Source: Phoronis australis
Lineage: Eukaryota > Animalia > Phoronida
Length of the DNA: 54,662 nt
Reading direction: 5' to 3'
Assembly (NCBI GenBank): GCA_002633005.1
Contig: NMRA01000578.1
Span: 142,067 to 196,728, forward strand
Position numbers and translations under genes: made by a program. Positions 13,648-50,233 of this stretch are shown here, piece after piece (within the stretch, counting starts at the first letter, position 1; every line of letters starts with the position of its first letter). Under the pieces are notes generated by a model that was not told the origin of the DNA, made no database searches, and was given only the letters and a program-made list of their open reading frames with translations.

Positions 13648-13851
13648 TTAAGAAAGTTCGAAGGTCACGTATTATTCGCCGCTGACATGTTTGTGAAAAG
13701 GATAGAACCCGGACACTTCATTTACACGCTTTTGTTAAACAATCGCTGACTCAGGTAGAGGTCATTCACTGGGAGGTCAGTCTCCGTACAAGTGTTGCGA
13801 AATCTATTTTCGTGTCATTCTATTCAAACGGGATACTCAGACGAGGACGAA

Positions 13852-22356: not shown

Positions 22357-25300
22357 CTACTGGCGTGACATCTCGTCTTTCAGCAAGTCATAAGTTGTTT
22401 CTTCGTCCTCGGAATCTTAAACAATACAGACATTTTAAACAATACTGACACCCGACACCTGCCATGCATCTATGTGTCACCTTTTAAGCCATAGACAGTA
22501 GACCATGACCTGCAGGATTCGGGTGTCGAGAGACAACCATGGCTACCATTGGTGTAAAAATCAACATTTTTAGTTAAAAACACCTCGGAGAGAGTAAAGG
22601 CAGCAATCTCCTATACACCTATTCCATTCATGATACATCCTTTATATGGATAGGTTATTGGTGAAACCAAGGGTTTAATTTCAGTGAAATCACGGTGTGC
22701 TAAGAACCAGAATATTCGTAATCACTTTGCTGTGTGTCGGGAGTGATCAAGGGCGTTCGTGACGACACTCGCCAACTAAAGTTTCTTATGACGCTATCAT
22801 GTTCATACAATATAGTATAGAATAGTACTTAATTTTATATACGTCATTATGTGAATACGAAAGTAAGTGTCGCCAATGCATGAATACACATATACTGATG
22901 TGTTAGTGCAGCGCCAATCAAAACAAGCAATTTTTTAATGTGCGAGTACATGGAAAAGTAAAAAGAAGTTTTACGAATACAATACCTAGTTGGCGTCCCC
23001 AGAGTCCTCCCCAATAGTTAAAGACATGCCTTTGGAAAACTTGACACACCCCTCTGCGTGTTCCAGAACACTGTTTACATTGCGGCGGTATCTGTTTGGT
23101 TTTAGCTTTCTCCTCTCCTGAAACAAATCGATGCATTTTTTAAATTTCCAAACGAACATCAAAAGCGCTCATACATTGATATAACTTTTGTTATGGACAC
23201 CGACAAAAACAAATCGCAGGATAGTGATCGTCTGCTGAGTTCATGTGAACTACTGATGCATAGTAAAATAATTTCAGTGCTTGTTTTGTGTGCCTATCTC
23301 GAAAATTCCTCTTCAGAAGAACACACTTTTCTTAAAGCAAATGTCCGCTGTTGCTGCATATACAAGTTCCATCCTTTCCTGTATTTAGATGCATTGCATC
23401 ACATATGAGTAAAGCAACCCGCCAAGCAAATTTTGAAGGTCTTGAATGGTGAAAAATTGCTTTTGGGCTATCGCGATATGCCATTCCATTACTTTGCACT
23501 TACGGCAATGGAAGTTGCTTTTATATTCATCCTATCAGTTTCTTTTATTTTTCGGCAGATTTTAAACACTTCATCCAGACTGTTCAGCCTATGGTGTATA
23601 CTTGCGCGTTAAGTTACAAGTTTAATCTAGTAAAAGAAAATAGTATCAAATGTAACGAATGGTTACTTGAAAACAGTAAACAACAGTAACTGTGCATTGA
23701 TCTTGAAACTTGGTTTTGGAAAATTGTCTAATAAAAAGAACATTTAACATTGAAACGGTCTCATCGAAGATAAGTAAATTAGTGACAATATTGATAAAAA
23801 CAGCTTCAACATGTCACAGCGCTGCACTGCTTCGATCCCAAGAAAGATAGTGTGATTCATTCCGATGCCAGTCTCAAGGGACTTGGTTGTGTTCTCTCTA
23901 CAAGATGGTCAACCCGTTTACTATGCTAGTCGTTCTTTGTGTAAGACAGAATGAGATATAACAACATTTAAAGAGAGCTCCTCGCAGTCTGTTGGTCATT
24001 GGAGAAACTTACCATGGCAAACGCGTTACTCTGAAACAGATCACAAGCTATTGGAAAGCATCTGGAAGAAATACATAGTCAAAGCGTCTCCTCGATCACA
24101 ACTCCTCCTTTTGAGGATGTCTAGATACAATGTAGACGACTTATTCCGTGTCAGTAACACGAGTATGCCGGACTGTGACTCACCAAACATCCTGTGATCG
24201 GCATCAATGCTATTACCAATGGAATACCTGCAACCCGTGGATATTCAGGAGATGAGAGTTGACAGCAGCCGATGTAGGACTATCTCATCTCAAGGACATC
24301 GTGTTTGATGGTTGGCCCGAGAAGATTCACCAGGCGCACATTGGAGTCAAGAAAAGTTTGCTGAAGACCAAAGAGAGCGTATTCTGGCCCGGTATATGCA
24401 ATGAAATAAAGCTGATGCCCCAGCCCTGTCATTTGTACTGCACGCCATTCCGACATACCCCTGTCAATGTGTTGGCACAGATTGATTTCACTTCCAGTGA
24501 GCTACGTATCTGCTGGTTGCTGATTACCACAACAAATTCCCGTTCATGCGATTATTGCGGAATACCTCATCCAATTCAGTTATCAACCAGCTCTCTGCTG
24601 TACCCTCATACTAACGGTTTTGCCGAAAGGATGGTGAAAACCGTGAAACAGATCCTGAAAGAGATACAAAAAGCTGGCGAAGACTAGTAACTTGCGGTGT
24701 TGAACTACCGTACTACCCTTTTTGACAACCAGTTGCCCTCCCTGGCAACTATGATCAATTCCAGAAGTTATCGTACCCAGTTACATAGCAGACGGTCACA
24801 CGGTGTGGAGGAAAAAGTGGAACAACTGCAGGACCGCCAAGATCGCTAAATTAACTCGTATAACGATCAAGGAACACGACCGGAAGAGATGCAAGACGTC
24901 CATACCCAACAGCCGGTAGTCTATCAACCCAGCTCCAAGACCTGGTGTGCGTTCAGTAACGCTAGGACCTACGCTAGGACCTAGCTAAAATCTAGCCCAA
25001 GTCACGTGTGTTTTGAATGAAAACAAGCAATTTCGCGAAGTCTTGCTTTTTAGCGAGGTCTTAGCGTTACTGAACGGGAGGCTGGACACCGGCTACTGTC
25101 ATGAAAAAAGGCAGACGAGCCACGCTCATACATTGTGAAAACGCCGGATGGTGGTGAATACCGTCGCAACAGTGCTCTATGATCAAACCGTTGGAGTCGT
25201 CGTCAGATTGTCCTGTCCCAGACTCCAAACCCGTTCAAAAGCCACCTCTGCCGGCACCCGGCACAAGTATAAATACTATCAACCGTCTAGTGCCTAGTGC

Positions 25301-28300
25301 ACTAGGAGTAACCGAGTTCAAACACAGAGACAGAGACGATATATGGACTAGTGTGTTATCGTGTTTTACCTTCAACCGACTTTTGGTCTTATTTTTAAGC
25401 CTAAGTAAACTTTATATTACTCCATTTCTTTCAGTTTAGCTTTAGTGGGGAGATGTGACAATACCTGCCATTGTCTTGGTACATTTCTGTTGTTCGTTTG
25501 GTCACCATTGTTATGGCACGCATGGGCCTGCTACAGTTATCGTTTGATTAATGAACAGTGAACTTTGATTACTTGTCTGATTCTTTTACACCGATGATGA
25601 TGCTTGAGGCATCGAAGAGTGTCGAAGTTGAAAAATCTCGTTTTTATTTATATTTAACATTGTAGTTAGTGAGGAAACGGCAGCGCTCTGAGTGGCAGAC
25701 GATAATATTGTAGGAAATAAAACGGAGACACAAGAGTTATATAATTAACAGTTTTGTATCAGATGTTATGTATGCTTGTGACCTGATTGTACGTTGACTG
25801 TTACTTATACTGCAGTAACTTTATTACTTAAAACTATTTTAGGAAATTTTGAAGTGACCGAGTCGACATTAACCTACTTTTTGTACTCTCAATGTCAGAG
25901 TATCGAGGGACTATTAAAAGCGAGTAGTCCCGTTGGTGCAACACGGAAAACATTACTAGGCCTACATGGCCATATTGCCCTCAACTAATTCAACAATAAA
26001 CAATCAAATTGCACCTTTGCTTTAATTTAGATATACGGCAAAAACAACAGTAAATTTGTTCTGATGGTCACCGCAGACGGGTAGCTTCGAGCTGATCTGT
26101 TCGCCCCCAGTGAAATTCGTGAGAACTGCTCTCTGACCTGTTAAATGTGTTTGTCGTACACAGTGTAAATGCACTTCGCATGGTTACAATGGATTTGTTC
26201 TTTTCAGGTGATGAAATAATAAATATTCGTATGCTACCAAACACAACCGACAAGCACACATGCTGTGAGGATCCATTCTCGCCACATGTGAGACATTCGT
26301 ATCATCGATGCTTAATCCTCGCGTCGATTCATTTTGCTGCAAACATGGGCTGTGATCTGAGCTAATTCACGTTAGGGGCACAAAGCTCTCGGTCTGTGGT
26401 GGCCCTTAGATTGTGCAAAAATACTTTTATAGAGACAGAAGGAAATGTACAAAAGGTGAAATGCATTGTGAGACTCAATGAAAAACATTTACATATTTGG
26501 GCTCAGGTTTCCATTTAGGACAATACTTTTGGTCCCGCCTTGCACAGTAATGAGCTAAATAGAGAACTGGGGTTATGTAAGCCACTTTGTGTGAATTTTT
26601 TTATTGGTACTCCTTATATAGACTCAACAAAAACAAGTAAGTGACAATATTACAACGAGATTTTTCAACTTCAATATGTTTCGATGTCTCAAACATCATC
26701 ATCAGAACAAGCAATCAAGGCCATCTAACAGTCTTGACCACACAGTCTAGAGTAGCGTGGTCATAGCTCTAATCTTGTTGTTTTTGTTAATACTCCCTGT
26801 ATATTTTATTTTGTGTTCCCCCTGTCTCCCCTTATGTGTTTTGCACAATCTTAGCACAAATTTGTTGGCGACCTTTCACTCTGACATTCCTGCCTGACGA
26901 AGAAATGTTTGCACTTCAAAAACTTGAAAAGTGTTGCAATGTTTTTACCGCATGTTACAGGAAATAAATGCGCAGTTTTATTGTGTATCTTTGTTTCACA
27001 ATCGACAATCCTCTTTTCGTTATAATTGGTATACTGGCACTGATGTGAAATCTCCAGAAACTCGATGGCGAAATCTTTAAGAAGTGATGATCAGTTCTGA
27101 CATGGAACATAAACCTCTTGTTGCTAAGCACAAATCAAGCACCGTTTGAACACAAAGAATAACGTAGTGGTCTCAAAGCAATGGAAACGGAACACTATAT
27201 AATTGAAAAGTTGATCTTACCGTTCTTAACGCATCGATAACCCACATTAAGGTACTTGACCGTTCCCCGACATGGATCGCCAAAGACAGAGTTTAATGCC
27301 TTCAGCGAACAATGTTGTTTGTTATCACAATGACACTGGGCGGTGCTGAGAGCTGTCATGGAAGCGCACTTGCTGGTCCTCACGGGCCCTAAGAGGCAGA
27401 TCTGTCGATTCTTGCGACCGTACAAAGCTGATACAATCTTCAGGGATTGATTCGCAGGGCAAGAGAGGGACAGCGTTTGGTATTCACACACTGTCTTCGA
27501 TGCTGTTGAACACACACGAAAAATGTTGGTTTTAGGTAAACAATTCTCGTTAGTCTATAAACACCACTTACAACAAATGTGGCTTGACATTGACTTTTTG
27601 AGATCAACCGCAACGCGCACTCGAGCCCACAACCTCAGCGGTAACACTCTAAAACTATTCTGCGGTAGTTTACACGCCACTCGATACTCAGCACAGTATG
27701 TTAAGCGTGTTTAGGTTGCGCTTAACCTTATTTCACAAAAATGCTATTTGTAAAAATATGGATTGTGCATGCAGCAAAATGAATGAGGATTGAAAATAAA
27801 TTCAATTTAACATAAATAGTCGTTGCTTTTGGAAATGGTGTCACCAACAGTCTATCAAAAAGGCATGGTTACGTGTCCATGAGAATGACACAGTGTTGAG
27901 AATGACACATATAGACTTGTGTCTCGACTCCTAGTTTCGGATAATGCATTCTTTTATGGGTTAACAGTGGCTAGTTCATTGGCGATCCGTAGTGAAATCA
28001 CAAAAAACAGCGGATTTATTTAATTGTATTATAGCCCTGGTCAAAGCCAATAACTTCAATAACTCTATCCCAACCAATAATAATCGCCCAAATGCGTTTT
28101 TGGTCGTAAAACCGACAGCATCAGTTAAATGTTCTGCCGTTTATCAAGTGGCATTTAGCTTCATCAGACCGGTTAGGTTGCGACCGCAAGGTTGGAAGCT
28201 CGAATCAGGGATGATGCTGCGTCTTACAAAGCAATATTTCTCACCGACAATGTCCCTTTAATAGTCAAGTTTATTTCTTCTGTGTTTGTCACTGCAAGAC

Positions 28301-31300
28301 CATTGAAAGGCGAAATGTCAAATTTATAAAATGCGCTCTTGGTTTAAGGTTATCTCAAACCTTATTTAGTGACTTCCATTCTAACTCGTATATTAAAAAG
28401 TGGCTTTGTCAACTAGCAAAAGTATATATTTTCTAAAAGAATAAAAGATCAGGCATACATATTTTACATTTATATGCCATCATTAATATTACACTAACAC
28501 CTTTTTAAACCAATTTTTCACTTTTACGAAATGTAAATTCATAGCAAAATAACGCTTCGGTCGATTTTAATGAAACCTTTTTAAATGTAAACTTCATCAA
28601 TTACCTCGAAAGCCCTGTTAGCAATATTCGATTAGTCTCTTAGTTTGGTTTCTATGAAAAATCAACTCGCGAAACGTAAGCTATTTTTGTAAAAAAAGCA
28701 GTCGTATTCGCTTCTCTGACATTACGAAAAAACTAGGCTTTATATAAAAAGTCCTAAAACCGTTTAATGAGATGAATAAATATCAAGTTTGGAAAATTCC
28801 AGCGAAATCCACGCATCCGTTTTCGAGAACTCGTGTTCCTAAGTTCAAATTAAGTTTGGAATCTGATGTCTATGATATATGATGAAAGTCAACTTGCCTA
28901 GCTTCTGTAAAATATGATAGCAGTACGCTGGACAAGACGCACAGTAATGCTTCATCTGTGAAACGGAGTGCTTTCGCGCTGCTTTAACCGCTGTTATTAG
29001 GTCGGTGGCTGCAAAAAAGTGTGAGGTATAGTTTAAAATCAGCAGACCAGTCAAAGATTTCAAAGTCAGACCTGTCTTGGATCATCATCGAAGGTTCAGC
29101 TCCTCATATAACGTTACTGAGACATGTTAACTGATGGGTATTCCAAAGGTACAAAATTTCGAGAAGCGAAAATTTATTTCCCAAAAGAAAACTTTCGTGA
29201 TTTTTCGACATTTAACCAAATGTTACAGTTAAAAATAATCTATTAGATAGCAAGATGCCATTTTTATTAAAAATCACAGTTAAATATCAAACATTCCTGA
29301 AATCGAAAGTTGTGCGTCTTATTACTATACATACTCAAAACTACAATTTATATACTAAAATGTGCAGGTGGCATACCATTACAGATTATGTTGCTTGTGC
29401 ATGTATGCACCTCAGTAGAATTTAAAGTGCAAGTGCATAATTGACCTAGCTGTGGTTTGCTATCTGGCAAATTAAAGTGATGCTTATCAGTTTGAGGAAG
29501 CAACGTTCCACAAATATCTGCTTTGAGATGCGCGCGCATGCTTTTCGAGATTTTTTAAAGTAATCAATGAAACTGTTAACAGCGTCTGTATTTAATTGTC
29601 TTCGCCGGTTCTCACGGGTCAACTGGTTAAGATGTCTGACAGGTTCTCGATGACAACTTCCGGCTCATAGACCAATCAGTCGGTTGACTCAGCAGAACCG
29701 GCGAAGTCAATCAAATACAACTAATATGTTGGTGACGGTGGTGGTTACAGTCGACACGAAAATGCTTGGTACCGTGATACCAAACCGTATCTGACCAGTT
29801 AACTTACACGGTCTGTTTAACCACAGACCGCCCCAAAATCGTTTCTTGCGCACAAGACTTTCCGTGGAATCATGATGAAGTTCTGAGGGGTATGACTTCT
29901 TGACTCTCGAAACCTCTGCAAAATAATTTCAAACTACATTTCCTGAGTACTGTCACAAAACGAAACATGCATTAAATCAATTATGCTTGTATTAAAATCT
30001 CCCGCCATTCCTTACCGTGATAGGGACTTGATTTCCCTTATGACTGAACACGACCATTAAAACCTACAACGACGCTAGGAAACATTTCAAAGATTATTAG
30101 GGTTGGTCAACTCTAAAATTGCGAATTTGAAAATGGCGCACGTACACATTGTCTGTGAATTGAGTTGCAGGGCCATTTAGCAATAATTTAAGAACAGCTG
30201 AATTTAAAAATGTTTTGAACCTGGCCAAAGCGCTTCTAAGAATTCAACATTAACAGCTAAATAGTGGCGAATTGTCCATATGACATGAGTTAACAACATT
30301 TAATACGATATCAAGCCCTGTTTTACTTTATTGATAGATATTAATTACATATTTTACTTAAATGGGAAAACCATAATTTTTAATATTATTTTCAGTTACA
30401 ACAAGAATTTCTGGCTATATAGACAAATTTTAAGACTTTATCTCAAGGGGTTATTCTCGTAAAGACACTTGAGAAATTATACCAAGTTAAGTAATTAAGT
30501 TTTTCTCGTTTTGTTATCAAATTGCAAGCTTTTTTGAACACAATTTTGTTTCTTGGCCGAAATCAGAAAATCCTCTACGATTTTCGGCTATTGCCGTGAG
30601 GGAGTTCCCTCTACATCAGTTTAGGAAACTTGATTCCTGAATTGACGGCCATGTTGGCCTTGGAAATGTACTGATAGCACCTGAGCTTAAAATTGGTCGT
30701 CATTTTGTGTGGTTGTTTGCGATTCGAATTTTCGTCCTCGCAATACAAATTTTGCTTTTCTATTGTCCAAGTGTTGAGCCATTTGTTTGCATACTAATTT
30801 GCATATTAAATATAATTGTAACTTGAAAGGTTGAATACGTCTCACTTCAAGCAGCCAGCACTAAATGCATTGACTCATAGCGAAGGCCAAATGGCAACTT
30901 TTAGCTAAAGCGCCCACTACACCGTAGCAATTTTTATCTAGATCTTTAAGTGTGTTTGTTTCTTCGCTCAAGTGCGATACCGGCCACTGCCTGGCAATAG
31001 GGCGGTCCCGGATTACACTGCGATAGAACTCTCCTTCGTCCCGGAGATAAGAAAGCGTGTGACCTAGTTTTGGAAATCACGTACATTTTCGTTTCTATAA
31101 ATGATGTCGGGAAGGCGAAGCATTTCAGATCAAGCATCCTCGGGTATTTGTCCAGTTTATGCCGCTTTTTCACGTCGGAGTTGCAGCCCACAGCACAGCA
31201 GTAACATTTCATTAGCATTGGAAGAACGAATAGAGTAACGCAACCGAGAAAAACTTGTAAAGAATCAGGCAACAACAAATAACATGTGAAACTCCAGTGG

Positions 31301-31710
31301 CACGAAAACGAGGCAGCAAATGTGCCTGACGGATGTTTACGGCATTGTGGGTAAATACAGCGAGCGGGATTCGAATGTTACTGTGTAATCCGGGACGGCC
31401 CTATTGGTGCCGCTGCAGGAAGCGCTCTTGGCACTTGGCATCAAACCGACACCGGCATTCTTGGCTGTTAACTAATTTACACGATACGTTGTGCAACGGT
31501 GCGTAATATGTCTAGCCCTGGCCTAATTATTCAGGGCAAAAGGTAGACATAGTTCCGTGTCCTTGGTTGACAATAGTAGCTACTATACGTGAAAAGGTGA
31601 AACCCACCGTTAGCCTCTTTCTCTTTCACTTCATCCAAGATAGATTGTGTTGCGCTAGATAGGCATGTACTGGCGATAACTACAACTGTCAGCAGAAGAT
31701 AGGATTTCAT
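22357..31710 (-). CDS. Secreted SUEL/rhamnose-binding (Gal_Lectin) lectin prepro-protein A; coding exons 31710-31608, 29915-29808, 29008-28898, 27502-27221, 23117-22986, 22415-22357; 264 aa
   Basis: All introns phase 1. Translation MKSYLLLTVVVIASTCLSSATQSILDEVKEKEANEVSRVKKSYPSELHHDSTESLVRKKRFWGGLWLNRPSTDLITAVKAARKHSVSQMKHYCASCPAYCYHILQKLASKTVCEYQ..ALYGR..GDPCRGTVKYLNVGYRCVKNGEEKAKTKQIPPQCKQCSGTRRGVCQVFQRHVFNYWGGLWGRQLDSEDEETTYDLLKDEMSRQ*. SUEL motifs YGR and DPC..KYL present; every exon has a counterpart in paralog B; minus-strand AATAAA at 22158-22163. Confidence 0.85.
23815..25560 (+). mobile_element. Degenerate, internally deleted Gypsy/Ty3 LTR retrotransposon (RNase H, integrase, PPT, 3' LTR start)
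   Basis: Frameshifted motifs DPKKDSVIHSDASLKGLGCVL, YYASRSL, RELLAV, TDHK, IHQAHIGVKK..VFWPGI, YPHTNGFAERMVKTVK, LNYRTT, PRSYIVKTPDGGEYRRN; polypurine tract then TGT at 25454. Lies in intron 4 of lectin gene A, antisense. Confidence 0.85.
24946..25081 (+). mobile_element. MITE inserted in the Gypsy remnant, same family as the core of 12141-12325
   Basis: Inverted ends CGTTCAGTAACGCTAGGACC / GGTCTTAGCGTTACTGAACG; CTGG duplicated; removal restores the Gypsy frame K-T-W-T-P. Confidence 0.7.
29588..29718. mobile_element. Small MITE-like element; related sequence at ~47820-47942
   Basis: GTATTTAATTGTCTTCGCCGGTTC inverted as GAACCGGCGAAGTCAATCAAATAC; GAACCGGCGAAG and GGTTCTCG..CCAATCAG recur in intron 3 of gene B. 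Confidence 0.5.
30999..31402 (-). mobile_element. 404-bp non-autonomous ISL2EU/Harbinger-like element with THAP N-terminal remnant
   Basis: 20-bp TIR AGGGC(G/C)GTCCCGGATTACAC (19/20 match), AT flanking both ends; internal minus-strand MKCYCCAVGCNSD..FAFPT is a THAP start. In intron 1 of lectin gene A. Confidence 0.65.
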
Positions 31711-32433
31711 TCTTGAGGTTTTCTGAAAATACAAAGCACAAAACAAATAAGGCCAAAACATAGCTGAATCTGGTCTCTAATTTGTTTTGAAGACTGAGTC
31801 AGTGATGCGATATTTTTTAATTGCTGGACAATCCCCCTGAGACAAATGAGGAAAAAAATATGAGGGATTGTATTTTTTGTTTCACTCATCCTTGGCAAAC
31901 CAAGGCGATTCAGTTCTCGCTTACCCTTGCGTATGTGTCTTTGTCCAATTTTCCAACAAAAATGATACCTTGGCTGATGTGAGCGAGCGATTTTTTAGTC
32001 GGTGAGCTCGGGTCTCAAAATGAGTCGGTGTGCAGACCAGAGCTAACTACATCCCTTTTTATCCAGCTAGTATCAGAGACAATAAGTGTCACACAAAAGA
32101 CTTTTCAGAGACATTAACCTAAGTCAAATGAAGCAAGTGTATGGTGTAAATGAAAATATGAAAAAAATAAAATATCCAGAGATCTACATATATGTTGTAG
32201 AAACATAACAACAAATACTCGTGTTCCGCAGTGTGGGAATTACTCACTGAATTGCCAGCCGCTGCACTCCCGCAAATCGATAGCTGATGATCATCAGCTT
32301 TAGGAGGAGAGGTTATGTAATAGGGAGATGGTCACGCTGTCAGAGACTAATCGTATTATTCACTTTTACCACTCCATAAAGAAAATAATAAAAGTTTAAA
32401 GTTGCCGCATTCATCAAACTAGGAGACAGTGTA

Positions 32434-32630
32434 GGCCTACGTGGCTCAATGGTTTGAACACAGAAATCCTGTTTGAGAGAAGTGGGTTCGAATCCTGACT
32501 TTGAAAGTTTACTTGCTGACAATCGAGCATTGCACAAAGGTGTCTCCTACTCCTCAGAGCTTGGTCTTACTAGTAAACGTATCCAGTGGAGTGACTGAGA
32601 AGCAATTTCTGGGGAACTGCTTATATTATG
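32434..32630 (+). mobile_element. tRNA-derived SINE
   Basis: Pol III A box TGGCTCAATGG (32442-32452) and B box GGTTCGAATCC (32485-32495) at tRNA-like spacing, no complete cloverleaf; 3' end approximate. Confidence 0.55.
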
Positions 32631-32940
32631 ATTAGAAAGTGTTTATTAAAAGTATTCAAGGTCATTGGCCTAAAGTACAAATACAGAAATTAAAGTTACA
32701 ATACTAGAGAGGTACAATCATTTCTTTATGTAACGATGATCTCATTTTATAAGTGTTAATGTTATTATCAAACTTGACAATGTATCAACTCAAAGAGAAG
32801 TGTATATCTATAAAAAAAAATTCAAAAGAGCCTCTGAATTGGGCATAAATCAGAAAAAAAATCCAGATGTGCAGCAAAATACTTGTTGAGTTTGCTAGTA
32901 CCAAAAGTCAAATTCTTATGAAATTACAGGTACGCCTTAC

Positions 32941-37024: not shown

Positions 37025-40000
37025 CTGTTTATAGTTTGTCGGTTCTTCTTTGTAAAGGTGCTACATAAAATCCCTCGGCATAGCTGGACTGTTTGCAAAA
37101 TAACCAGAATTAAATATGAAATTTTCAAAATAATTTGTAGGACTGCACCAACAAAATGGCCGCATCAGCTCAGCAGCAATGAATTTCACTTTGTAGGAAT
37201 TGCCAATAGAAAACCTAAATACGAATTGTTCCAGTTTTAGTTACGTACCTAGATTAATGAAGCACTTACGGTGTTATTTAGTGTTGAATTTGTGTTTCAT
37301 TTGGCGTGGAACTAGTTTTCAATTTAAACATTGACAATAATTTATGAAGACGATTTATCAAAAAGCAACTCAGTAAACAAAAACAACATGTATCTGAGGA
37401 CGACAATATCCGAAGGCAAGTGTGTGAAAAAGCACTACATAAAATGGATAACGACCAAAATGTGCCTACAAGATATAATTTTTTTATCCTTACCAAGTTG
37501 AATTCTTCGCAGTCAGAAGCTATAACGACAACACTCTTCCCTGTGACGTTCCCTTTTATCTGCTTACCAAAACAGGGTTTGATGAAACTTATTGTAAAGC
37601 TGACTTGTGGGTTGTGTGGCAAGTGTTGCTACACTCAAAAACTCGTCGGTGTACATGCGACACGCTTGAGAGGTCACGTGTCCCGAACAATGGCGGCTAT
37701 CATGCATTACTTTTTGAATAAATGAGTTTGTTTTGAAATGAAACCTTTTCATACTTGTAGTGCTTGAAATCGTTAATAGAGGCGTTTGTCCACTTGCAGG
37801 GTTGGGTATTTGTGATAGATATGCGGACAGCAGAAAAACATCAATGAGTCATATCCGCCGACTGGACTGGATAGAAAGAAATACGACCATCGCAAACTCT
37901 GTTTTAAAAATCAGCACAGGAAGTAGCATTTATGGTTCCCTGTAAATACATGGGCTTAATGCTGTACATTTTAGAGTATTTCCTAGCTTAAGGTGATGAA
38001 CAAAGTTTTAAGATTATATTCAAATTGCTATCAAAATACTATATATTTTAGTAAGTATTACTGACACGATGTTAAGTCGCCAACGATATCCAGTTAGGAT
38101 CATGCTCTCCGGCTGTTTAGCAAACCTCTCGCTTATTGTATATATTGTAACAAAAGTCTCTGAAACATGAAGTTTTGAAAAAACGGTTTTCATGATATAC
38201 GAGTCCACGGTTTAGTTTGAAAATGCAGTTAGGTAGAGAAAACAAACCAAATCACGTGCGTATCCATGTAAGTTGACGGGAGAGTAAGAGCTGTTGAAAC
38301 TACAAGTATCGAAAGTCTACTAGATTGTCAAATGATTGTTATTGTGCAAATCCCGAACTATTCAGAATTATAGCAAGCATTTTTCCCCGAGAAGCACGTT
38401 AGTGCTCGATTTTGAAGTGCTTTTAAAAATGACGATGATTTTGGTCTTGGTACGAAAGCTGGTACTATCTGTGTAAACGTTGTTGAAGTACACAATACTC
38501 TCACCATAGACTACAGTACATGGACCGCCAACTCCTTATATTTTCAATGGACGAAATCCGTTATCTTACGCATAAGCAGTGACGTCATTATTCACCAGCG
38601 ATACCTTCTCTCTGACACAGCGCTACCTATACTGAAAAGTGGCCCTGTGGAAACATGATGAACGACACACGGTATTCCGTGTGTGGGCATCAATGCGCAT
38701 GCTTGGTCGGAAGTTTACCGATCACATCGTCACCGCTTGCACACACCCTCTATGCACTGTACTTGTTTAGACTTAAGCCACTTGAGCGGGGTTTTCCTTG
38801 ATTTTGTTTACTTCGATTACTGCCCGTTGTAAAAAATTGCATCTATTCAAGTCAAAGGTGGTAGCCATACTACGTAACAGTAAACTGAAAGGAGTTTCCC
38901 AGAATGTTATGACGTCGGTTTCAATACTTTAACCAATGAAAAGCCATGTTAAACAACATTCCACCGCGCTACCTTTCGTGTATAGCGATACCAAGCAGAT
39001 ATAGCGCGCATTACTTACGTCGTCTGCTAATCATGGTCATTTCGTCAGGATTTGGATTGGCGATTTTGCCCTACTCACATCAGCGCTTAATTAAATTGAA
39101 CGCCCGTAAAACGTGAACTTCTAAAATAAAGCTCAAATTTTAATAGTAGTATTAAAATACTCCAGAAATAACCACCAGGCCTACTCAAAAACCAATTTCG
39201 CAGTTCAACAGCAGTTTACTTGACGACGCTCGAATGCTCACCGGTGCCTCTCAAAATGTCTGGACTCTTCTGTTAGAAGATCTTAAAGAACATTTCAATG
39301 CCGAAATAATTTTTTTTCGTTGTACTAGATAGTAAAATAGATGGAAGAATTTACCGTCACAACACACTAAGCGAAAGCTGAGCTTTCTTTGTTTCGAGGG
39401 TGGCGACTCCTCTAGGATATTTGGCAAGGAAATGTGGGAGTTGCGAATCTGTGTTGCCTATAGTCTAAGCTCTCACTTAAAATTCTAAGTGTAAAAGGAA
39501 CCTATGCTTTGTTGCGAAGTTCTTGACTTAGTAAATGCAAGTTGCACGATGCTCAGAATTTGTCGTTTACGGGTCGACAGGAAACGTATCAGAATTTAAG
39601 TACCCGAGTTGCATGTTAAATATGCATGAGAATAAACTGATGGTGCACTTAGCAGTTTCCCATGGTTGTGTCTCCTGTGTCAACTTAAATGCTGTCTCTC
39701 CAAGTCCTGAAGCTCCATATCATGTCTATTGAACGCCATTGTTTCCTGTTGAAATTTCAATCCCGAGCCCCTTAGTTGTTAGTTGTGTTGGGGTCCCAGA
39801 TTCGGGCTGCCGAGGAGGGTAGTAGCCCCAGAAAGGGTTCACGAGATCCTATGACCCCCCCACAAGTATAAACGCTGGCTTCGTTCATTTGTATTAAGTC
39901 GAGTATTTTACTTTCTTAAGCAAGAAACGAAAGAATGAGAAAGGGACACAAAAGATATAAAAAGACAGCTTACATGGCCTGGCTGACATTCTTTTAACAT

Positions 40001-40456
40001 ACTCACTGTGATACCTCTGGTTTAGTAATTTTTACGCTTGTAATTATAAATGCTCAGATATGCTGGATGACCAAAAGCATTGCATATACCTAACAACGTC
40101 CTTTAAAAAGATTCTAAACCGTTTTTGTGCCACCTGCTGTGATCCAACTAGTAGCGTCTAGTAGATGAAAACGTCAGTCAGCTGAGACACCGATCTTTAC
40201 TGTGTCACAATGATCCTGTCTTTCAATTTAGAGTGGGTCGATCCTATAGCCCACGATAAACTGGCTACAGTAAGTGCGTAATTTATTCTGAGTTTTGAAG
40301 GCAATAACCTAGTGACTTATTTTCGTTTTAATTAGTGTGTGTCCATATCACGTCATTCTTTGTCTACCACACTGACCCAAGAGGCAGGTGAGGACACAAC
40401 GGGTCTTGTGATGAGCGTAACTGGCTATTCCTGACAATGGAGCGGTGCCTATAAAG

Positions 40457-40901
40457 CCAAACGCCGTAACTCCATTCAAGAGTCTATTAAATGCAAGCCG
40501 TTACATGCTTGTAAGTCATTGTATTATATTACTACAATACGTTATTCACTGTAACATTCTTCAACAAGCCCACAATGAGACGCCGGGCATTTTCTTTGAG
40601 CAACGAGAACAAGTGTGAAGTCGCGAGAGTTCTGGGATAGCGGTACTTTCATCTGAGGCGGCCATTTTGTAAATGCGGCGCGCAATACAAATTGCCGCTA
40701 GTCTCGAAGCAGAATATAAGCCAAAATCTTGGCAACAATAGTTAATATCGACTTGATCCTGGAGCTCATTGTAACACGCATGTAGGACAAGGGTTGAAGA
40801 GTGTTACGGTGTATAATGTATTGTAGTAATATATTACAGTGAGCTGCAAGCATGTAAAGGCTTGCATTTAATAGACTCTTGAATGGAGTTACGGCGTTTG
40901 G
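40457..40901. mobile_element. 445-bp foldback/MITE with ~109-bp TIRs
   Basis: CCAAACGCCGTAACTCCATTCAAGAGTCTATTAAATGCAAGCC is exactly inverted at the right end; inner part of the arms is imperfect. Confidence 0.75.
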
Positions 40902-43516
40902 AACGGGTCATCAAGAAGTGTCAATGCCGTCTGTCTTCTTTATAGACACTCTTGTAGTATTTTTTGTGGTTTTAGTGAATGTGAATGTCTCCAGAAACTT
41001 ATGATTGAATTACAATAACATCTCGGCTTTCCAGATGTAATCAAACTATAACGGTAACTGAAGCTGACGGAGTCTCGAGGCGACCTTGTGACTATCATAT
41101 GCAGATTTAGCCAGTGCTGGATGAAGAAAAACTGGTGAAAAAGACGACCCCATTGTATTCCAAGAGCCTTCAGCGAAATCCCTTTATACCGGGCATGGTT
41201 TTTTTTTTACAAAACTTGCTCAGGCAAATTATGTGAAACTGGAACTGTGGAGGTCGCACTGGGATGGTATCAGAATCGTGAGGTCCGGCAATTTTAGGTC
41301 CTAGCGTTATTGAACGCTACCTTGAACGTGCTGTTATAGAATTCAAACTAGTTGAACTGAACTGATGCATTTTCTTTTAAGCATGTTACAAAAGTTTTAG
41401 AGCTAACGAGGCTCACAGATAATTATTTTCTTTCAGAGATATTAAAGATTTCGTCTGCATGGTTATTTTCATTTACCGGAATTTTCCGATAAAAAGCGCC
41501 AGGTTGTATATTAGTACACATATGTTATATAACTTAGGTGATGATAACTGTGGGTTATTATATCCGGATACGCGATATGCAAGCCAATTTAAACGCGGGC
41601 GGAGTCATACATAAAGTGTATTTAATCTTCAGAGGGCTAAGCGGTAACAAGTGTTTATATGTCGTTGTGGAATTACGAAAAAAATTTAACTCGTAAAGTG
41701 TGTGTTTATTCCATATAAAATAGCAGCAATTATAAACTAATCAGCATGTGGAACAAATTTAACGTGAAATAACGAATTAACAGAAAAAAGCCGTCTGCTA
41801 CTTGTACTACCCGACCGGCAGTTGGTTGAACAGACGATCTAAACAAGACATTGTGTAAAAGAAAAGAATTACTAGAAAAATTTCATTGAATTAATAAAAA
41901 AATATCATTATAAAAAAATTCTTATAAGCATTAACAACTTTATTTCCTTATTTGACTACTCGGTTAGGACCAGGCCGGAGGTTATGATTTTCGTATTTGG
42001 CGTAGTAACATGTTGTCCATAGCAACGACTCATTCATGATTAGTTAGCCAAATGAGGTCACTGTATCGTTTAGGTTGCATTAAGTTTGTTAAAATTAAAT
42101 TTTTTGGATGATATTCGTCGGATATGTTTATGATTTGTGCTATGTATTTGGTTCAGTTGTCATTAGTAAGATGTTTTTCAAGTGACACAAAAACCAGTAC
42201 AGAATTAGGAGATGTGAGTAACATATAACAACATGAGCTGAAAACAATCACCGAAATTCTTGTGGACTTAGTCTGTCAAATACCGTAATTTTCACGGCTT
42301 TTCCAGGAATATTTTCTCGAGAGAAAATACGGAAAAGTAGTTCTGGTGCCGTATTTTGCGGTGTGTTTAACACAGTTATTTCACGGCCGTACCATCACCT
42401 GTGTATAATAAAATGGCATTGGGTACTGAGTTTATGGGGACGATATTAATTTAGCTCCATTCTAGCCGTCTTTTTGACTACGTCCTCCAAATGACCTATT
42501 CTCACTTCAGTAAAATACCAAGTCTCAAAGAATAGACTGATTATTGCAAGTTAATTGGGTAACTGAGTTTTGCTATTACGTGGCAAAAATTTCCTTTCAT
42601 GATAGCAAAACGGAGCTTTAGACAAAATTTCTGACATTTAGCCTAAAATCACTTTTCATGAAACCATCCCCGCTACATATGCGACCTTCTAAACTGAGTC
42701 TGTAGGTGGCGATAGAGTTTGTGTTATGTAAATGTTCACATGGCAGCTTGATTGACAGTTAAAGCAATGAGATTTAACATCATTTTTGATTCTTCGTAAT
42801 CATCAAGCTGTCATATTACGACTGTAGTGCGATGGTATGTTAACTGACTCACGCAAAAAATGCAAATCTTTGTGAATAATTGTCTTCATTAACACGGCCG
42901 TCGTTATAACTCGTGTCAATAAAAAATTGAGATTGAATCGAGCACAAGTCGCTTTTGTGCTCCCGCACTGATAACCCATATAGCCTTATCTAGAACACTC
43001 CCTTATAACTTCGAGCTACATAGAAAACTGTGTAAGAACTAACTTTCAATATTTATTACCATAATCTAACTGAATGAAATACTAATGATTAACCACAATT
43101 TCAATGACTGACAAGCACTAAGATAAACTTTTTAGCATATTTTGAAATAACTTAAGTATTAAAAATCAATAAATGCTGTGCGATTTCGTTCATAAAGGGG
43201 TCATAACATGTTTCAGGCGTCTGTTATTAGACAAATAGGCCAATATGGTCCCAAAATGGCGATAATATAATCATGAATGAATTACATCAACTGCTCGATC
43301 GATTCAAAAATTGCCCGTAGTCAGATTTTTGTGCGGTGCTAAGCTAAGAAGTTTCAATAATTCATTATTCTGGTTGCAGTTTTTTTGCGATAAATTACTG
43401 CCTCTATCCACGTAGTTGTACTACACGTCCAGGTAAATTATCTACATTCCACCATCACACCATTTTAATTATCTCCACATACGTTTGCCTCATTTAAAGA
43501 CAGCTTTCGATTCTTG

Positions 43517-46500
43517 CTAAGCTCTGTTACGCGAGATCTCTTGTTTCAGCAGTTCCTGCACCATATCTTCCTCCTCGTCAGCATCTTGAATAGTATACAA
43601 AGAGGTACAAGTTACAAAGAGAGTATAACATGCATGCATAATCACATGCGCGCCCCCATTTGGCGCAGTGGGCAAAAAGGTCCGCCTCAGAGAAACAAAA
43701 AGTCGGAAAGAGTAGAAAACGACACAAAAGTCCACTATAAAGGCAGGAAGTAAAAAAAATTCCAAAGGTCCACATTCTCAAAAATTCAGGCCTCTCCATT
43801 TTTATGCCGAGTGCACACATGAATCAGTCCATGCTAAAATCACAGTGTATACTGTCCAACCTACTGTCACAGATTCACTCGTTCCCCCCCCCCCGTTGAC
43901 TATATGTGTATAGTGTGTATACAGATACCTGTATACATTATAGTATGTTTTTACAAATTCACCCCCCCCCTCCCCCTACTCAAGTAGCGTACAGCCGAAA
44001 TCTAAAACTACTACATCTATTGATTAATTGCCATGCCAGTAATTAAAACTCAAGTTTAAAGTGCCTAAATTTTTTATCAAAATCAATCAACTGTTCTTGC
44101 GCTCACTTGTTCAGTTATGTCCTACTGAGAATTCAATTTTAGTGAAAAGTAAAAGCTCTTAGATCAATACTACTGGTTGATGATTGCTAGAACTCGTGAC
44201 CACACGGACGCAGGTAACGTCATTTGAGTGCAGTATGATGTAAGATAGACCAAACTTGGTTTAGCTGCATACTTTATTTTTCAAATTTATGCATAAATAA
44301 ATCAGTTTCAAAATACGTACCCGATATACTACGCCCCCAGAGGCCTCCCCAAAATTTTAGGCGATGTCCTTGGAAAATTCGACACACTTCTTTTTGTGTT
44401 CCAACACACAGCGTGCAGCCTACTGGAGGCGAAGATCTTTTCATTCCTGTAACGAGCAATTTTTACGCTTGTAATACGTATATTTCAAAACAACTCGTGT
44501 AATTTCCGGCCTAGGCAAATTGGAGTATTGTACAGCAGTGTAATCAGTCAGAAGATATTACAAAATACCAACTAAAATAAAATGCTAAATAGTATTGCAT
44601 TCTTTTCACACTTCGGCGCAGGTGTTAAGTTTCAGGTTGGATTTCACAACCGCCAAGAAAACTTGTTTGCGCAGAGTAACAGATTTTTAATATAATCGCT
44701 GACGTAGTAATGTGTTTCAAATTTCACCAGGAGCCATGTCTCGACGTAGGCGCCTGTCGCGTGACTGAGCTTACCGAGGGCGTTTATGGCGGAAACCAAC
44801 CCACAGCAATGTTCATAAGAAGTTGTATGTAGGTCAATGATTTATTGACTGTGAAAATCTCTTATCTCAAACTTTGCGCTTCCTGCAAGTGCTCAGAACG
44901 TGTTCTGTCACTACTTAGAATTACTGCTATACTTAAAACGTATTTACCTGAAGTAACAATGGTGTAAGTAGGTGTAGGTGTCCTAACTTTGATTTTGATT
45001 TTTTCGGAAAGCTAAACCCGAAAAAATGCAGTTTTAAGTGATGCGTGATTAAATCATTAACTGAACTATTCACATTGCAAAACTAGAAACCCTGGTGTAG
45101 TTTAATAGTTTTGAATCCTTAAAGTGCTCAAAACCACCAATTCCATGTCAAAACACCATAAAACAACCCCACCAGTCGACCAGTTGTCAAATTAGAACAC
45201 CCTCAAACATTATCTGACGATATGTTAATCACTTGATCTCGAGTTACGAACATTTATTAGTCGATACATACTAAGTAGTATCGGGGAAAACAAACCACAG
45301 CCTTAGTCATTTTCAATTGTTTTTAGTGTATAAAGTCTTCAGATATTGTTTCCCGTTTTCCTGTGGATTATGGAATGGTAAAAAATGGCGAGGAGTTGCG
45401 GGGTGGTTGGTAGCACTCTGTGACTCTATTCACTTTCCCGCGTTGCATCAAAGAAGCGCGGATACGGCACACGTTTGTACAAGACACCTGCGTGCTGGTG
45501 GACATGACACACTGGCGCTGGGTGAGTTCTTATGTCACACTCATGCGTCCGTGGAGCTAAGAAACTTTTCTTCTTCTATTTTCGCGTATTCAGGATATTG
45601 AATTCACGGTTGTGATACGCAGTGGTATAACGGAAGGTTTAATGATCCTGAAAATGGTGGTTTTAAGCACTTTAAAATCTATTGTTTACACGTAGTGTAC
45701 GTATCAAAAATACTTATTAGCAACCGTTTGATTACGTTGCTTTTACCTCCTGTTACACATTGATAAACGACGTTGAGATATTTGTAAGTTCCTTGACATG
45801 GATCGCCGAAGATGGTGCTTTCTGCCTTCAATGAACATTTTTGTTTATTATCACATCGACACTGGGTGGCGCTTAGAGATGCCAAGGAATTGCACGTGGT
45901 GGTCTTTATGGTTCCTATCTGGCAAATACTTCTGTCCTTGCGACCATACATGGCTGATACAATCTTCAGCGTTGAACCTTGTTTACAGGACAAGTTCATC
46001 GTTTGCCATTCACATACAGTCTTGGATTCTGTAAAGAAAGTAGGCAGGTGAACTGTCTTTTGTAGTACACCAGGCGTGCTTAGGTCACAAGGCTGTGCCA
46101 ATTGCACCCATCATGGATCCCTCAGCATGGGGCTCCTCATGTGTGAAGTCTTCTAATCTGCCTGACTTAAACTTGAATGGTTTCCTCCAGGAGGCTGCGA
46201 AGCATTTGACAGTCAGGGCAAATCACAATTAAGTGTCGAATATTGACTTCCATGCAACAGTTAGGGCAGTTTTAGCACGGCATGCTTCTTGTGATGATTT
46301 GATGCCGACCTTAGTTGCAGAGCCAGTAATTGTCTGTTTTTTTATCAACCTGCCAAATAGCATGCTATCTATGGATAGCAGCTTCATTAAACCCTTATGT
46401 TCAATAGGGCCGGGTTTTGTTTGCACGCAAAAGAAGCCTATCCTCTACGCATTTCCAGATAGTTTTAGCACCCACTCTTTCACCCTTGCCTTACAGCACC

Positions 46501-49500
46501 TGATTTGACAAGATCTGGTGCGAAATTGGGTTCAATTCCTCCTTGTAGTCAGCACCCTCATTACCGTCGATGGCAACGTGAAATGACATGGACAGTTCGG
46601 GCTTTAATGGCTGCTTGACTGTCTGAGAACCTAAACATCTCCTGGCTACCAGGGAAAGTCCTATGCTCTCTAGCCAGTTGAACAGCCTGATAAACAGCGA
46701 CCATTTTAGCCTGGAAAATGTTGCAATTTTGTCAAGTGACACTTATGGGACCGTTTTATCAAAGGTCGTAAGTCCGGTCGTAGCTAATACGGTCGTAACT
46801 TATTACAAAAAAGCATAATCGCGTTTGCGATAAAGTGACTAAAACCGTCTCCGCTATAACTGGACCTTTGTTTGCCATCATCTGTAAGAACAAGAAAGTA
46901 AATTCCTGATCCGGATTGAGCTATCAGTTTAGAAGACTGTTGGTCAGAGAGATTTAAGATTGCATGAACATATCCGATATGTCTGTACTGAGACTTAGAG
47001 TCGTCAACAACGTCGCCAGGCTTAACCAAACGAGTTCTTGCTTTTGACATTAACGTATAGCACGCATTTACATGGCTCCTGTGCGCCACAATATCATTGA
47101 CACTCTGCCACTGCTCATTACACTGTTGAAGTGAATATGCAAAGTGGAATGACAAGGAATATTTCCATCGCGTCCACAGGTGTTCCTGGAAATGCAGAAG
47201 AAATACAGAAAATAAAAGAGCTGTATTTGAGTTATGTTTTTTCTGGTGATGATTTGCTCCAGAGATTTATACACATAGATGTAGCATAGCCAAACATCGT
47301 TCTATTAATACCAGTATAAATACACTGCTGAAGAGGACTCCACAAGTTTTACCCACCATATGGGAACACCTCATCAAAACTGACTTGGCCTAGCTGATTT
47401 CGTCAACCACACGACGATAGAGAGTAACACCTGTTTAAATTACATTTTCTCGTAATGGGAGTTCAGTATCATAAAGCTTCAATGAGATAATAAGCCATTT
47501 CCGCTTCCGAGTGACCATCACCAGCTTTGTTGTTGCTGCTCCCGCTGGTCTCTAACCCTGGGATTTCTTAGATTAAAATAGAAGATTTGGTATTTTCCAC
47601 GAACTAGTACACAGTGCAGGAAAAGTTCATCATGATAAAAATAGTTCATAAAATGTTCTTTTTGTTCGTCGTAACAGAGCCACCATCTTCATCGCCAACG
47701 TTGTTTTTCTTTTTAAAGAAGAAAGTTGAAGCCTATGTTCTTTATACATGTACATTGAAATGTTAACCTGTAAAACTCGCTGTTCTACCAGTTAATTCAT
47801 TGGCTACACTTAATTTACTACGCCAGTTCAGCCGAGTGAACCGGCGAAGACATCTGAGTGGTTCTCGGTGGCAACACCAGCTTACAACCCAATCAGATGT
47901 CATAGCCGATTGATCCGACTGAACCGTCGGAGTTAATCAAGCGGAGTTACGGAAATCCCAGCTAAAGTTCTATCTTTGTAAAAAACACAGTTTCTTCATT
48001 GTGACAGTCGTTAACGTACCTCCGACTACGGCTACGCTTGCTATGACTTCTTTCTTTTTAAAACAAAATTAATACAAATTCACCTACTAAGCAATTGTGT
48101 AATGAAAGTTAACTAACCTTGCTTAGGTGGGAGTTTGAAACAATTCACCGGGCAAGATGTGCAGAACTTCTCCATTTCTGAAACGGACTTCCTTTTTGCT
48201 GCTTCTATGGCCTCTAGCAACGTATTATCTGCAGAAGATATGCAATGAATTTGGTTCCAAACAATTCAAAATTGCATTTTAGGGCAGAATCCTCGTGGCA
48301 CTTAGACCATCTGAACTTAGACACGTATCGGTCGTTGTCACAAACAGCAAAACGTTAGGAAGTTCTAAGCAAAGCCAGCAACTTGATGTACAATCAAACG
48401 CATACCGTGTCATCATCTTGAAGAATACACCAACAAACTTTCTATTTCTGCTTCTTGGATAAACAGTAAAAAAGTAAATATCTTCCTTGTTACTTTATTA
48501 GAAATTTGTAGTGCTGGACTTGGTAAAGGCCGTAAGCATACAACTGATGCTACACTCAACTTACCTGGAGGAACTTTCCACAGGTCGTTCCAAAATCTTT
48601 TGCTTCTCCCAGAGCAGTCCACACAACTATCGTGAAGCTCTGAAGAGTAAAGTTTATTTGTGTTGGAATCATCTGCAGAAGTTATGGTGTTGAGGATATG
48701 TGGATTGATTGGTGGTTAGGTGGTTGAATAGGTAGATGGATGGATGCATTTATACGCAGGTGATTGGACGAATGGGTGGATATATGGATGTAGAATTGAG
48801 TAGGAAGGCTGTATGGGTGGAGGGAGGGAGGGAGGGAGGGAGGCCTGGAGGGAGGGAGAGAGGGAGATAGATGAGTTGAGGCACGGATAGCTGGACGGAT
48901 GTATGGTTGGATGGGTGGCTGGTTGGCTGGATGGATGGATGGATAGAATGATGGGTGGAAATGCGGATGGATAGGTTGACGGATGAATGGTTGCGTGGGT
49001 GAATGGATGCGTGAGCGTACGAACGGATGGGTGGTAGGGTGGATGAAGGATAGCTGAGAGGATGAATGGGTGGATGGATAAGTGTGAATGCATGGTTGTG
49101 TGAATGAATGAATGGCTGAATGGCGTAATGAATTGATGTAAGTATCAGCGGATGAATGATGTGTGGAATGGTTGGTTGGTTAGATGAATGCTTGGATGTA
49201 TGGGTGGATTGATGGAGAGATGGGTGAATGGATAAATAGACGTACAGATGAGCGGATTGTATGGGCTCTGGTGGATGGACGGATATTTGCAAATTCCATT
49301 TCAACACCAACAACGTTTTCACACCCTATATTTTAATAATGGGGATGGAAACCAAGTTTTACCAATGAGAGCGCACCGTTACCGGATAACAGAAAAACTC
49401 TTTCCGTGCACAAAAACGATACTACACTATTTTAAAAAATACCTCTCTAAACAAGCGTCGTAGTTTTCGACAAAATGATACACGACAGGTCTCTGAAAAA

Positions 49501-50233
49501 TTGCTGTCAGGAATTGAGGCAGAGTCTTTGAAGCATAAGTGAAATTGATAAACCCCCAGCGTCTATAAGAATCTTGACGGTAAAAAAAATGTCAGTTCAT
49601 ACTGAGCCTGAATTCCAATCACACTCAAGAAATTTCGCCCCAAACTAATGCGCCGGCAGTCTGTATGTGTTTTGTTATGTTTTCTGCCACATGCACAAAA
49701 ATTGCTAGATACAAAGTGCTTGAATGTGGTCGGAGTTCAAGTTCCGTGGTAAGGGCTTTGGCCGGTGCGTGTTTAGTATAGCAAAACGTAAACATTTAAA
49801 TGCTTTTCCAGTATGCAGTCAAAGCTATTTCCATCCATTGGGTTATATTATATTATTATTATAATATTTTCTTCTTAGTACCAAGTTAAAAGGTCGAAGT
49901 TTGATCAGACTTTGTAAGGAACATTCAAATTTGCTCCAATCATGTGAAGGATGACGATGGTTACATACATTTTAGCAATTTCTAAAATTGATCTTGTCGT
50001 TGTTGCTTCATGTTATTAGACTAAATAGGTTTTGGTGTCGTTCAAAATAATCCAAACTTTAGGAATAATTGTGGGATACCAAGATACTTTTTTGTTGACA
50101 ATTGGGTGAGTTGTTGCTATAATACATGAGTTCATTGAAACCCACCGCTGCTGCCCTCTTTCACGTCCCTCGTCGCATACTGTATGGTGATTGGTACACA
50201 AGCAACGAGAACACCGATCAAGAGAATCTTCAT
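43517..50233 (-). CDS. Secreted SUEL/rhamnose-binding lectin prepro-protein B; coding exons 50233-50146, 48639-48565, 48228-48118, 46028-45747, 44446-44321, 43584-43517; 249 aa
   Basis: All introns GT-AG, phase 1. Translation MKILLIGVLVACVPITIQYATRDVKEGSSELHDSCVDCSGRSKRFWNDLWKVPPDNTLLEAIEAAKRKSVSEMEKFCTSCPVNCFKLPPKQESKTVCEWQ..AMYGR..GDPCQGTYKYLNVVYQCVTGGMKRSSPPVGCTLCVGTQKEVCRIFQGHRLKFWGGLWGRSISDADEEEDMVQELLKQEISRNRA*. Exon 3 (111 nt) and lectin exon (282 nt) match gene A in length. Confidence 0.87.
43645..43821. mobile_element. MITE of the same CATG-ended family with 5-bp TSD
   Basis: CATGCGCGC..GTGCACACATG, AATCA duplicated on both sides; ~60 bp from the last acceptor of lectin gene B. Confidence 0.65.
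46040..46745 (-). mobile_element. Non-LTR retrotransposon 3' remnant with RNase H domain (I/R1/Loa-like)
   Basis: Minus-strand frames give CNIFQAKMVAVYQA..FSDSQAAIKA and HVAIDGNEGAD, the RNase H motifs of non-LTR elements; broken by frameshifts. Confidence 0.7.
46860..47360 (+). mobile_element. Possible highly decayed Penelope GIY-YIG 3' remnant
   Basis: Fragments DLRLHEHIRYV and KIKELYL, followed by a partial hammerhead-like CTGAAGAGGAC near 47328; many stops. Confidence 0.3.
48700..49285. repeat. Degenerate (GGAT)n/(GAAT)n/(GGGA)n low-complexity tract
   Basis: Directly visible; in intron 1 of lectin gene B. Confidence 0.9.

Follow-up and report, generated by a model that had tools for sequence, protein, structure and literature searches.

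Paired SUEL lectin genes of Phoronis australis that predict secreted proteins with processing signals at both ends

We have analyzed a stretch of Phoronis australis DNA (NCBI GenBank assembly GCA_002633005.1, contig NMRA01000578.1, positions 142,067 to 196,728 of the forward strand), referred to here as the window (54,662 nucleotides). It contains two paralogous genes, A and B, for predicted secreted lectins with a single SUEL domain. A and B occupy the minus strand, with six coding exons and five introns each, and together extend from the stop codon of gene A (22357) to the ATG of gene B (50233). The spliced open frames encode 264 (A) and 260 (B) amino acids. All 10 introns are in phase 1, and nine of them are bounded by GT-AG; intron 3 of gene A is GC-AG. 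Exons 2, 3 and 4 do not differ in length between the genes (108, 111 and 282 nucleotides). The paralogs are identical at 124 of 256 aligned columns (48%), with a nonsynonymous divergence (dN) of 0.43 and a synonymous divergence (dS) of 1.14, and a translated search of the window returned these two copies only. A preliminary description made from the letters alone had proposed a pair of paralogous SUEL lectins with a particular series of motifs. Each of these motifs was found on the minus strand, in the order proposed and in both genes, and the paralogy and the domain assignment held.

Gene A is spliced and expressed; of the three samples that one study provides, expression is seen in one. The RNA evidence consisted of raw reads aligned to the window, with 18-19% of each of the three runs (X2, X3 and X4) read. 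The five coding junctions of gene A were each crossed by 33-114 reads in X4, which bears out the six-exon structure that the preliminary description had proposed. In X2 and X3, gene A joints were seen in 1 and 2 reads, and depth over the bin holding the lectin exon was 48.8 in X4 versus 0 (X2) and 0.73 (X3). First mates of the junction reads map to the plus strand, which fits a minus-strand transcript in the usual stranded library. Run X1, from a different study, provided an 874-nucleotide contig with the joints of introns 1-4 and of an intron in the 5' untranslated region (UTR). Relative to gene A, this contig has an in-frame deletion of 3 nucleotides where exon 1 ends and at least six coding differences; among those listed, one is silent in an Arg of the furin site and none falls in a Cys or Trp motif. 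Minor isoforms of gene A may exist, since most reads on the stretch come from repeats and 15 of 58 splice joints were listed. The model of gene B draws on the geometry of its exons, on splice sites of canonical form and on the purifying selection seen in its sequence. The GC donor of intron 3 of gene A (28897-27503, minus strand) is backed by 33 reads, the fewest of the five junctions, and the same intron begins with GT in gene B.

The two predicted proteins share one layout: a hydrophobic N-terminus, a propeptide, RxKR, FWxxLW, an N-terminal arm (N-arm), the SUEL domain, a C-terminal arm (C-arm), (Y/F)WGGLW-G-R and an acidic tail. The N-terminus is the sole long hydrophobic stretch in either protein and is a predicted signal peptide, which suggests secretion. 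The predicted mature chains comprise residues 61-241 of A (181 amino acids) and 56-233 of B (178 amino acids), have a mass of ~20 kDa and contain 15 cysteines each. With seven disulfides and no glycan, the calculated masses are 20.24 kDa (A) and 19.90 kDa (B); A and B carry a single N-glycosylation sequon each. Their lectin domain of 93 residues coincides exactly with exon 4 in each gene. The arms beside it are 48 (N-arm) and 37-40 (C-arm) residues long, 85-88 residues together, and carry three cysteines each; the arm encoded by exon 3 is predicted to be helical and has CxxCxxxC at its end, and exon 5 encodes a predicted helix in addition to CxxCx7C and (Y/F)WGGLW-G-R. Net charge of the predicted mature chain is +20 in A and +12 in B, and the 21-25 residues that follow Gly-Arg form tails of -5 (A) and -4 (B). 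Coordinates of the exons and motifs are given in the table. A basic cluster also occupies a matching place in both N-arms (ARK in A, 28985-28960; AKRK in B, 48205-48180; minus strand), and a second cut there could release a short Trp-led peptide. The propeptide of gene B has an extra CxxC just 5' of the furin site (48630-48610, minus strand), which is lacking in A.

Exons of genes A and B, with positions counted from the first letter of the window and read counts from run X4
Feature	Position	Strand	Evidence
Gene A, non-coding 5' exon	37494..37604	-	Joint of 37494 with 31722 in 106 X4 reads and in X1 contig; 5 reads end at 37604
Gene A, coding exon 1: predicted signal peptide, first part of propeptide	31608..31710	-	Intron 1 spanned by 80 reads
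Gene A, exon 2: propeptide, RKKR (29850-29839), FWGGLW (29838-29821)	29808..29915	-	Intron 2 spanned by 114 reads
Gene A, exon 3: N-arm, predicted helical, CxxCxxxC (28943-28920), GC donor	28898..29008	-	33 reads over GC-AG intron
Gene A, exon 4: SUEL domain, eight canonical Cys and one extra, Glu/Asn/Asp sugar residues kept	27221..27502	-	PF02140 E 7e-21; intron 4 spanned by 77 reads
Gene A, exon 5: C-arm, CxxCx7C (23079-23044), YWGGLW (23016-22999), Gly-Arg (22998-22993)	22986..23117	-	Intron 5 spanned by 70 reads
Gene A, exon 6: acidic tail, stop codon	22357..22415	-	Reads run on into 3' UTR to ~21100
Gene B, coding exon 1: predicted signal peptide; as in A, ATG closely preceded by splice acceptor	50146..50233	-	Sequence
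Gene B, exon 2: propeptide with CxxC, RSKR (48607-48596), FWNDLW (48595-48578)	48565..48672	-	Sequence
Gene B, exon 3: N-arm, CxxCxxxC (48163-48140)	48118..48228	-	Sequence
Gene B, exon 4: SUEL domain, nine Cys, Ser replacing sugar-binding Asn	45747..46028	-	PF02140 E 1e-21
Gene B, exon 5: C-arm, CxxCx7C (44417-44382), FWGGLW (44354-44337), Gly-Arg (44336-44331)	44321..44446	-	Sequence
Gene B, exon 6: acidic tail, stop codon	43517..43584	-	Sequence

Secreted SUEL lectins are agglutinins or opsonins of one to three bare domains, or pieces of large modular receptors. The lectin exons match PF02140 at 74.8 bits (A) and 77.3 bits (B), with a curated cut-off of 31.4. Both have the eight conserved cysteines and the YGR and DPCxGTxKYL motifs; YGR and DPC motifs together with eight cysteines define the rhamnose-binding lectin (RBL) family (PMC3269628). 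Rhamnose is bound by Glu, Asn and Asp in domain 1 of the venom lectin SUL-I (PMC10377782), which is the closest match of the lectin exon in the PDB, and the counterparts of SUL-I Glu7, Asn71 and Asp76 are all kept in A and two of the three in B. A ninth cysteine is common to both lectin domains and missing in 10 SUEL proteins compared. Searches for longer proteins that were led by the SUEL domain (9 of 32 candidates passed in one, 10 of 209 in the other) returned ordinary lectins, 37-48% identical, and ESM Atlas queried with the lectin exon led to ordinary SUEL clusters. The arms, propeptide, twin Trp hexapeptides, Gly-Arg and acidic tail were found in none of the 10 SUEL proteins compared, which lie in this identity range.

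A and B are members of the SUEL domain superfamily that stand outside RBL types I-V. They share one domain, the eight canonical cysteines and the YGR and DPC motifs with known members such as SUL-I (5H4S) and CSL3 (2ZX0), and differ from them by the propeptide with its furin site, the two three-cysteine arms, the twin Trp hexapeptides, Gly-Arg and the acidic tail. Spare cysteines that could link a dimer are a likeness to type V, and 15 cysteines per chain would make a dimer plausible; type V, however, is a single domain alone (PMC3269628), whereas A and B have arms of 48 and 37-40 residues. Section 6 of that review does not name such a layout.

A canonical furin site (RKKR in A, RSKR in B) stands at the identical aligned place in both proteins. 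Cleavage after R60 (A) or R55 (B), which would leave an N-terminal Phe-Trp, is very probable. When the pre-lectin segment was shuffled 100,000 times, R-x-K/R-R followed by an aromatic residue arose in 0.29% (A) and 0.15% (B) of the shuffles. Identity between A and B, counted by block in just two sequences and therefore in small numbers, was 7/10 at the furin site, 7/9 in the Gly-Arg block, 57/93 in the lectin domain, 9/21 in the tail, 11/35 in the propeptide and 1/7 in the linker. Conservation within the protein is highest in the Gly-Arg block, where the proportion of nonsynonymous differences (pN) is 0.10 versus 0.50 for synonymous ones (pS). Gly-Arg is kept in A and B with different codons at an overall dS above 1, and the best split between basic and acidic residues falls at or just behind it in both proteins. 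A cut after Gly-Arg, followed by trimming and amidation to a C-terminal Trp-amide, is probable; this prediction is weaker than that of furin cleavage because a cut at a lone Arg is required. Some centrocins carry a Gly-Arg signal and yet are not amidated (PMC4805251). The hexapeptides at the two predicted termini resemble each other, with five of six residues identical in A (1 in 1,000,000 shuffles) and four of six in B (146 in 1,000,000), and within each mature chain they rank first and second among six-residue windows on a scale of preference for the membrane interface. All of these tests were devised once the sequence had been seen, and the two paralogs are not independent.

The preliminary description had regarded the architecture as unfamiliar, and our searches with the arms agreed. 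None of six non-lectin exons scored above a Pfam cut-off. A word-based protein search with the C-arm exon, a weak test, returned zero candidates, ESM Atlas queried with the C-arm was blank, and PDB sequence searches with one profile per arm gave best E-values of 0.53 and 0.94. Fold searches with the low-confidence single-arm models returned no signal over background (no match in Foldseek; best VIA Z 3.9). A HMMER profile of the two C-arm exons was run against 1.84 billion representatives; this search covered the C-arm only. Its three matches were long proteins with scores summed over 6-24 short stretches that lacked the motif, and they were rejected. In calibration with simulated relatives, 182 of 200 were found at 56% identity, 135 at 47%, 47 at 37% and 12 at 30%. 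The search thus indicates rarity in annotated sets rather than absence, since about three quarters of relatives at 37% identity would be missed and unannotated animal genomes lie outside these sets. A metagenome scan yielded 154 pattern matches, of which one passed; it was a 13-residue chance match in a long bacterial-type open reading frame and was rejected. A saposin or swaposin reading was dropped because the cysteine spacing did not fit and Pfam gave no match.

The architecture was not described in the literature searched, including the accessible portions of PMC8878817, PMC9966394 and PMC8350385, with subscription journals, figures and supplements outside its scope, nor was the string 'WGGLWG' found there. 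An unnamed entry in some venom or immune transcriptome could exist. The architecture is apparently undescribed and is built from a known domain, known processing signals and two cysteine arms, which together look like a disulfide module that has no name as yet.

Several known systems resemble A and B in part. Centrocins have a signal peptide, a propeptide of ~30 residues, a Trp-led cationic N-chain and a Cys-bearing C-chain with Gly-Arg amidation (PMC4805251). They differ in that a 24-residue interchain is excised and each chain has one cysteine. Their Gly-Arg stands at the very end, as in the Echinus centrocins (PMC4805251). A and B instead have a 93-residue lectin domain in the middle, followed by Lys-Arg in B only. 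The combination of signal peptide, propeptide and cationic Trp-led chain is seen in A and is incomplete in B, whose N-arm is neutral. The likeness is best taken as an analogy of layout. Arm searches by words and by the C-arm profile returned no centrocin, and no direct alignment to centrocin precursors was made. Big defensins are likewise prepropeptides with a furin-type dibasic site, a hydrophobic new N-terminus and possible amidation, and their hydrophobic N-terminus drives the formation of nanonets (PMC7203481). A and B differ from them by the lectin domain in the middle, by having only six hydrophobic N-terminal residues and by lacking the six-cysteine beta-defensin domain (the C-arm has three cysteines, and no Pfam defensin match was obtained). 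Pore-forming lectins such as CEL-III and the natterin-like proteins also join a lectin targeting module to a membrane-active part (PMC10377782), which in A and B is putative. The heads of those proteins are of the R-type, DM9 or jacalin kind and their pore domains are large and rich in beta structure, whereas A and B have two arms of ~40-48 residues for which helices are predicted at low confidence. Pfam and PDB sequence profiles matched no large beta-rich pore-forming domain in the arms, and the 85-88 non-lectin residues are in two pieces.

Our preferred explanation, to which we assign a probability of about 45%, is that the two genes encode a secreted, doubly processed and glycan-targeted SUEL effector of innate defence, whose Trp tips would attack or entangle microbes. 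The proposed steps are given in order of falling certainty. The signal peptide would direct the protein to secretion, and a furin-type cut would free the N-terminal Phe-Trp. The cut, trimming and amidation at Gly-Arg would produce the Trp-amide. While the protein is stored, the propeptide and the acidic tail may mask the cationic chain. The three cysteines of each arm could tie the arms into a stalk and bring both tips together. This pairing is suggested by the cysteine counts and by the expected closeness of the ends of the lectin domain, a compact fold whose ends are expected to lie near each other. The odd number of cysteines (15) would entail a dimer or a free thiol. Finally, the lectin head would bind rhamnose- or galactose-type glycans, and the tips would lodge at the membrane interface or promote self-assembly, resulting in permeabilization or entrapment. 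The cationic surface probably favors microbial envelopes, and rhamnose lectins agglutinate bacteria (PMC8350385). On this explanation A and B would be a blend, in their working, of centrocins and big defensins. If it is true, two branches of invertebrate defense, the pattern-recognition lectins and the processed cationic peptides, meet in a single protein of 20 kDa whose precursor is armed by cleavage at its two ends.

A number of observations weigh against this explanation. Gene B has Ser instead of the sugar-binding Asn, and its N-arm has no net charge, compared with +5 in A. Defense peptides usually diverge fast in their mature part (PMC4805251), but in A and B conservation is higher in the mature part (52% versus 38%). 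Amphipathicity of the arm helices was unremarkable relative to shuffles in four of six segments (the best two ranked 176 and 316 of 5000), and the highest 19-residue hydropathy beyond residue 30 was 0.86 in A and 0.60 in B, with no membrane-spanning stretch; a classic helical pore is therefore unlikely. Models of the single arms are helical with low confidence (mean predicted local distance difference test scores, pLDDT, of 52.5 and 65.2). Gly-Lys/Arg arises somewhere in the post-lectin segment in 66% (A) and 71% (B) of shuffles, so Gly-Arg alone carries no weight. The site is monobasic and internal and has no basic residue at P4, P6 or P8, where monobasic cleavage prefers one. The earlier proposal of processing at both ends is thus well supported at the front, where the furin site is canonical and aligned and conservation rises, and less certain at the rear. 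Its term 'GLW-amidated' fits the conservation of the Gly-Arg block and the charge switch there and is tempered by the frequency of Gly-Lys/Arg by chance; it implies no kinship with GLWamide neuropeptides, because there is a single amidatable copy and no repeat array.

Other functions were considered for the same proteins. The prepro and amidation layout is usual in venom peptides, and expression of A is sample-restricted, as might be expected of a venom or skin-defense lectin that is stored in a specialized gland and aimed at animal-cell glycans. Sea-urchin venom contains lectins of the SUEL type, and a cone-snail venom gland overexpresses them (PMC10377782, PMC6891753, PMC9132205). The likeness of the lectin exon to SUL-I, its top PDB match, is however one of a shared domain, present there in three repeats, and not of the arms; the arms match no venom family in the Pfam, C-arm profile or PDB searches, and a dN/dS of ~0.4 does not point to accelerated evolution. 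We regard a venom function as unlikely, and as slightly less likely again a structural or coating lectin of egg jelly, mucus, cuticle or adhesive, in which processing would trigger polymerization through Trp-Trp contacts and spare cysteines while the lectin cross-links glycans. RBLs are mostly proteins of egg, ovary and mucus, and those of type V form disulfide-linked dimers (PMC3269628). The odd cysteine count and the extra lectin cysteine of both genes would suit such a role, and weak amphipathicity suits assembly more than pores. An amidation signal and an anionic tail are nevertheless more typical of bioactive peptides, and the strong positive charge of A suits microbial surfaces.

The predicted G-L-W-amide end, followed by a basic residue in the precursor, is also the ending of the cnidarian GLWamides. 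The (Y/F)WGGLW-amide, attached or released, might accordingly activate a Wamide-type receptor, with the lectin tethering the ligand to a glycan surface. The block is strongly constrained, as are receptor-binding ends, and cleavage of cnidarian precursors can take place after Asn, Ser or an acidic residue as well (PMC6402141); Asn (A) or Lys (B) precedes the hexapeptide here. LWamide precursors, however, are arrays of short peptides with up to eight copies (PMC6402141), whereas A and B have one amidatable copy fused to a folded domain. They share no basic release site at an aligned place, the N-terminal copy lacks Gly-Arg and has drifted to FWNDLW in B, and 'GLWamide' and 'SUEL' never occurred together in the literature search. 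Signaling is quite improbable in our view. Least probable is a lectin with lineage-specific extensions that is processed at the front only or at neither end, with Gly-Arg incidental and the acidic tail retained. The chance frequency of Gly-Lys/Arg and the monobasic site would agree with it, and the tail has nine of 21 identities and a Leu-Leu-Lys pattern that could form a helix; it leaves aside that Gly-Arg has been retained with different codons, right behind the Trp motif and at the charge break.

A more far-reaching version of the innate-defense explanation, speculative and on balance unlikely, concerns the origin of the genes. A six-cysteine prepropeptide with the same Trp motif at both ends may have been split by insertion of a single phase 1-1 SUEL exon, and its halves, once cut by furin and amidated, would close into a disulfide-tied stalk that bears twin Trp tips under the lectin head. 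A and B would then represent an undescribed family of glycan-aimed, protease-armed effectors, membrane-active or self-assembling and without kinship to the pore-forming lectins now known; the C-terminus might serve as a Wamide-type signal too. Insertion of the lectin exon is an economical origin because all boundaries are in phase 1, the lectin is one exon and its removal leaves an in-frame six-cysteine prepropeptide. The phase 1-1 lectin exon would make a neat case of exon shuffling. No lectin-less relative was found in the searches made for the arms.

The window has a G+C content of ~40% and contains spliced genes, Ly6-like exons and THAP, GIY-YIG and integrase relics. Three kB-like motifs are present, one at 30600 in intron 1 of gene A and two at 38788 and 38900 in repeat-rich DNA 1.2-1.3 kb upstream of its first exon; this is about the count expected by chance, and they were not used as evidence. 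The last exons of two Ly6/uPAR-like genes are found at 4953-5201 and 17747-17995 (plus strand), each with a hydrophobic tail resembling a glycosylphosphatidylinositol signal and a Pfam score just under the cut-off; next to the lectins, they make up another tandem pair, also of cysteine-rich proteins, in this case small ones of the cell surface. A 1.3 kb element occurs in two copies at 6310-7631 and 12342-13651, 86% alike and in opposite orientation, with terminal inverted repeats of ~317 bases and a decayed THAP domain, and is a non-autonomous DNA transposon. Weak GIY-YIG and integrase zinc-domain relics at 10296-10871 and 24256-24687 (plus strand), the second inside intron 4 of gene A, are probably retroelement fragments.

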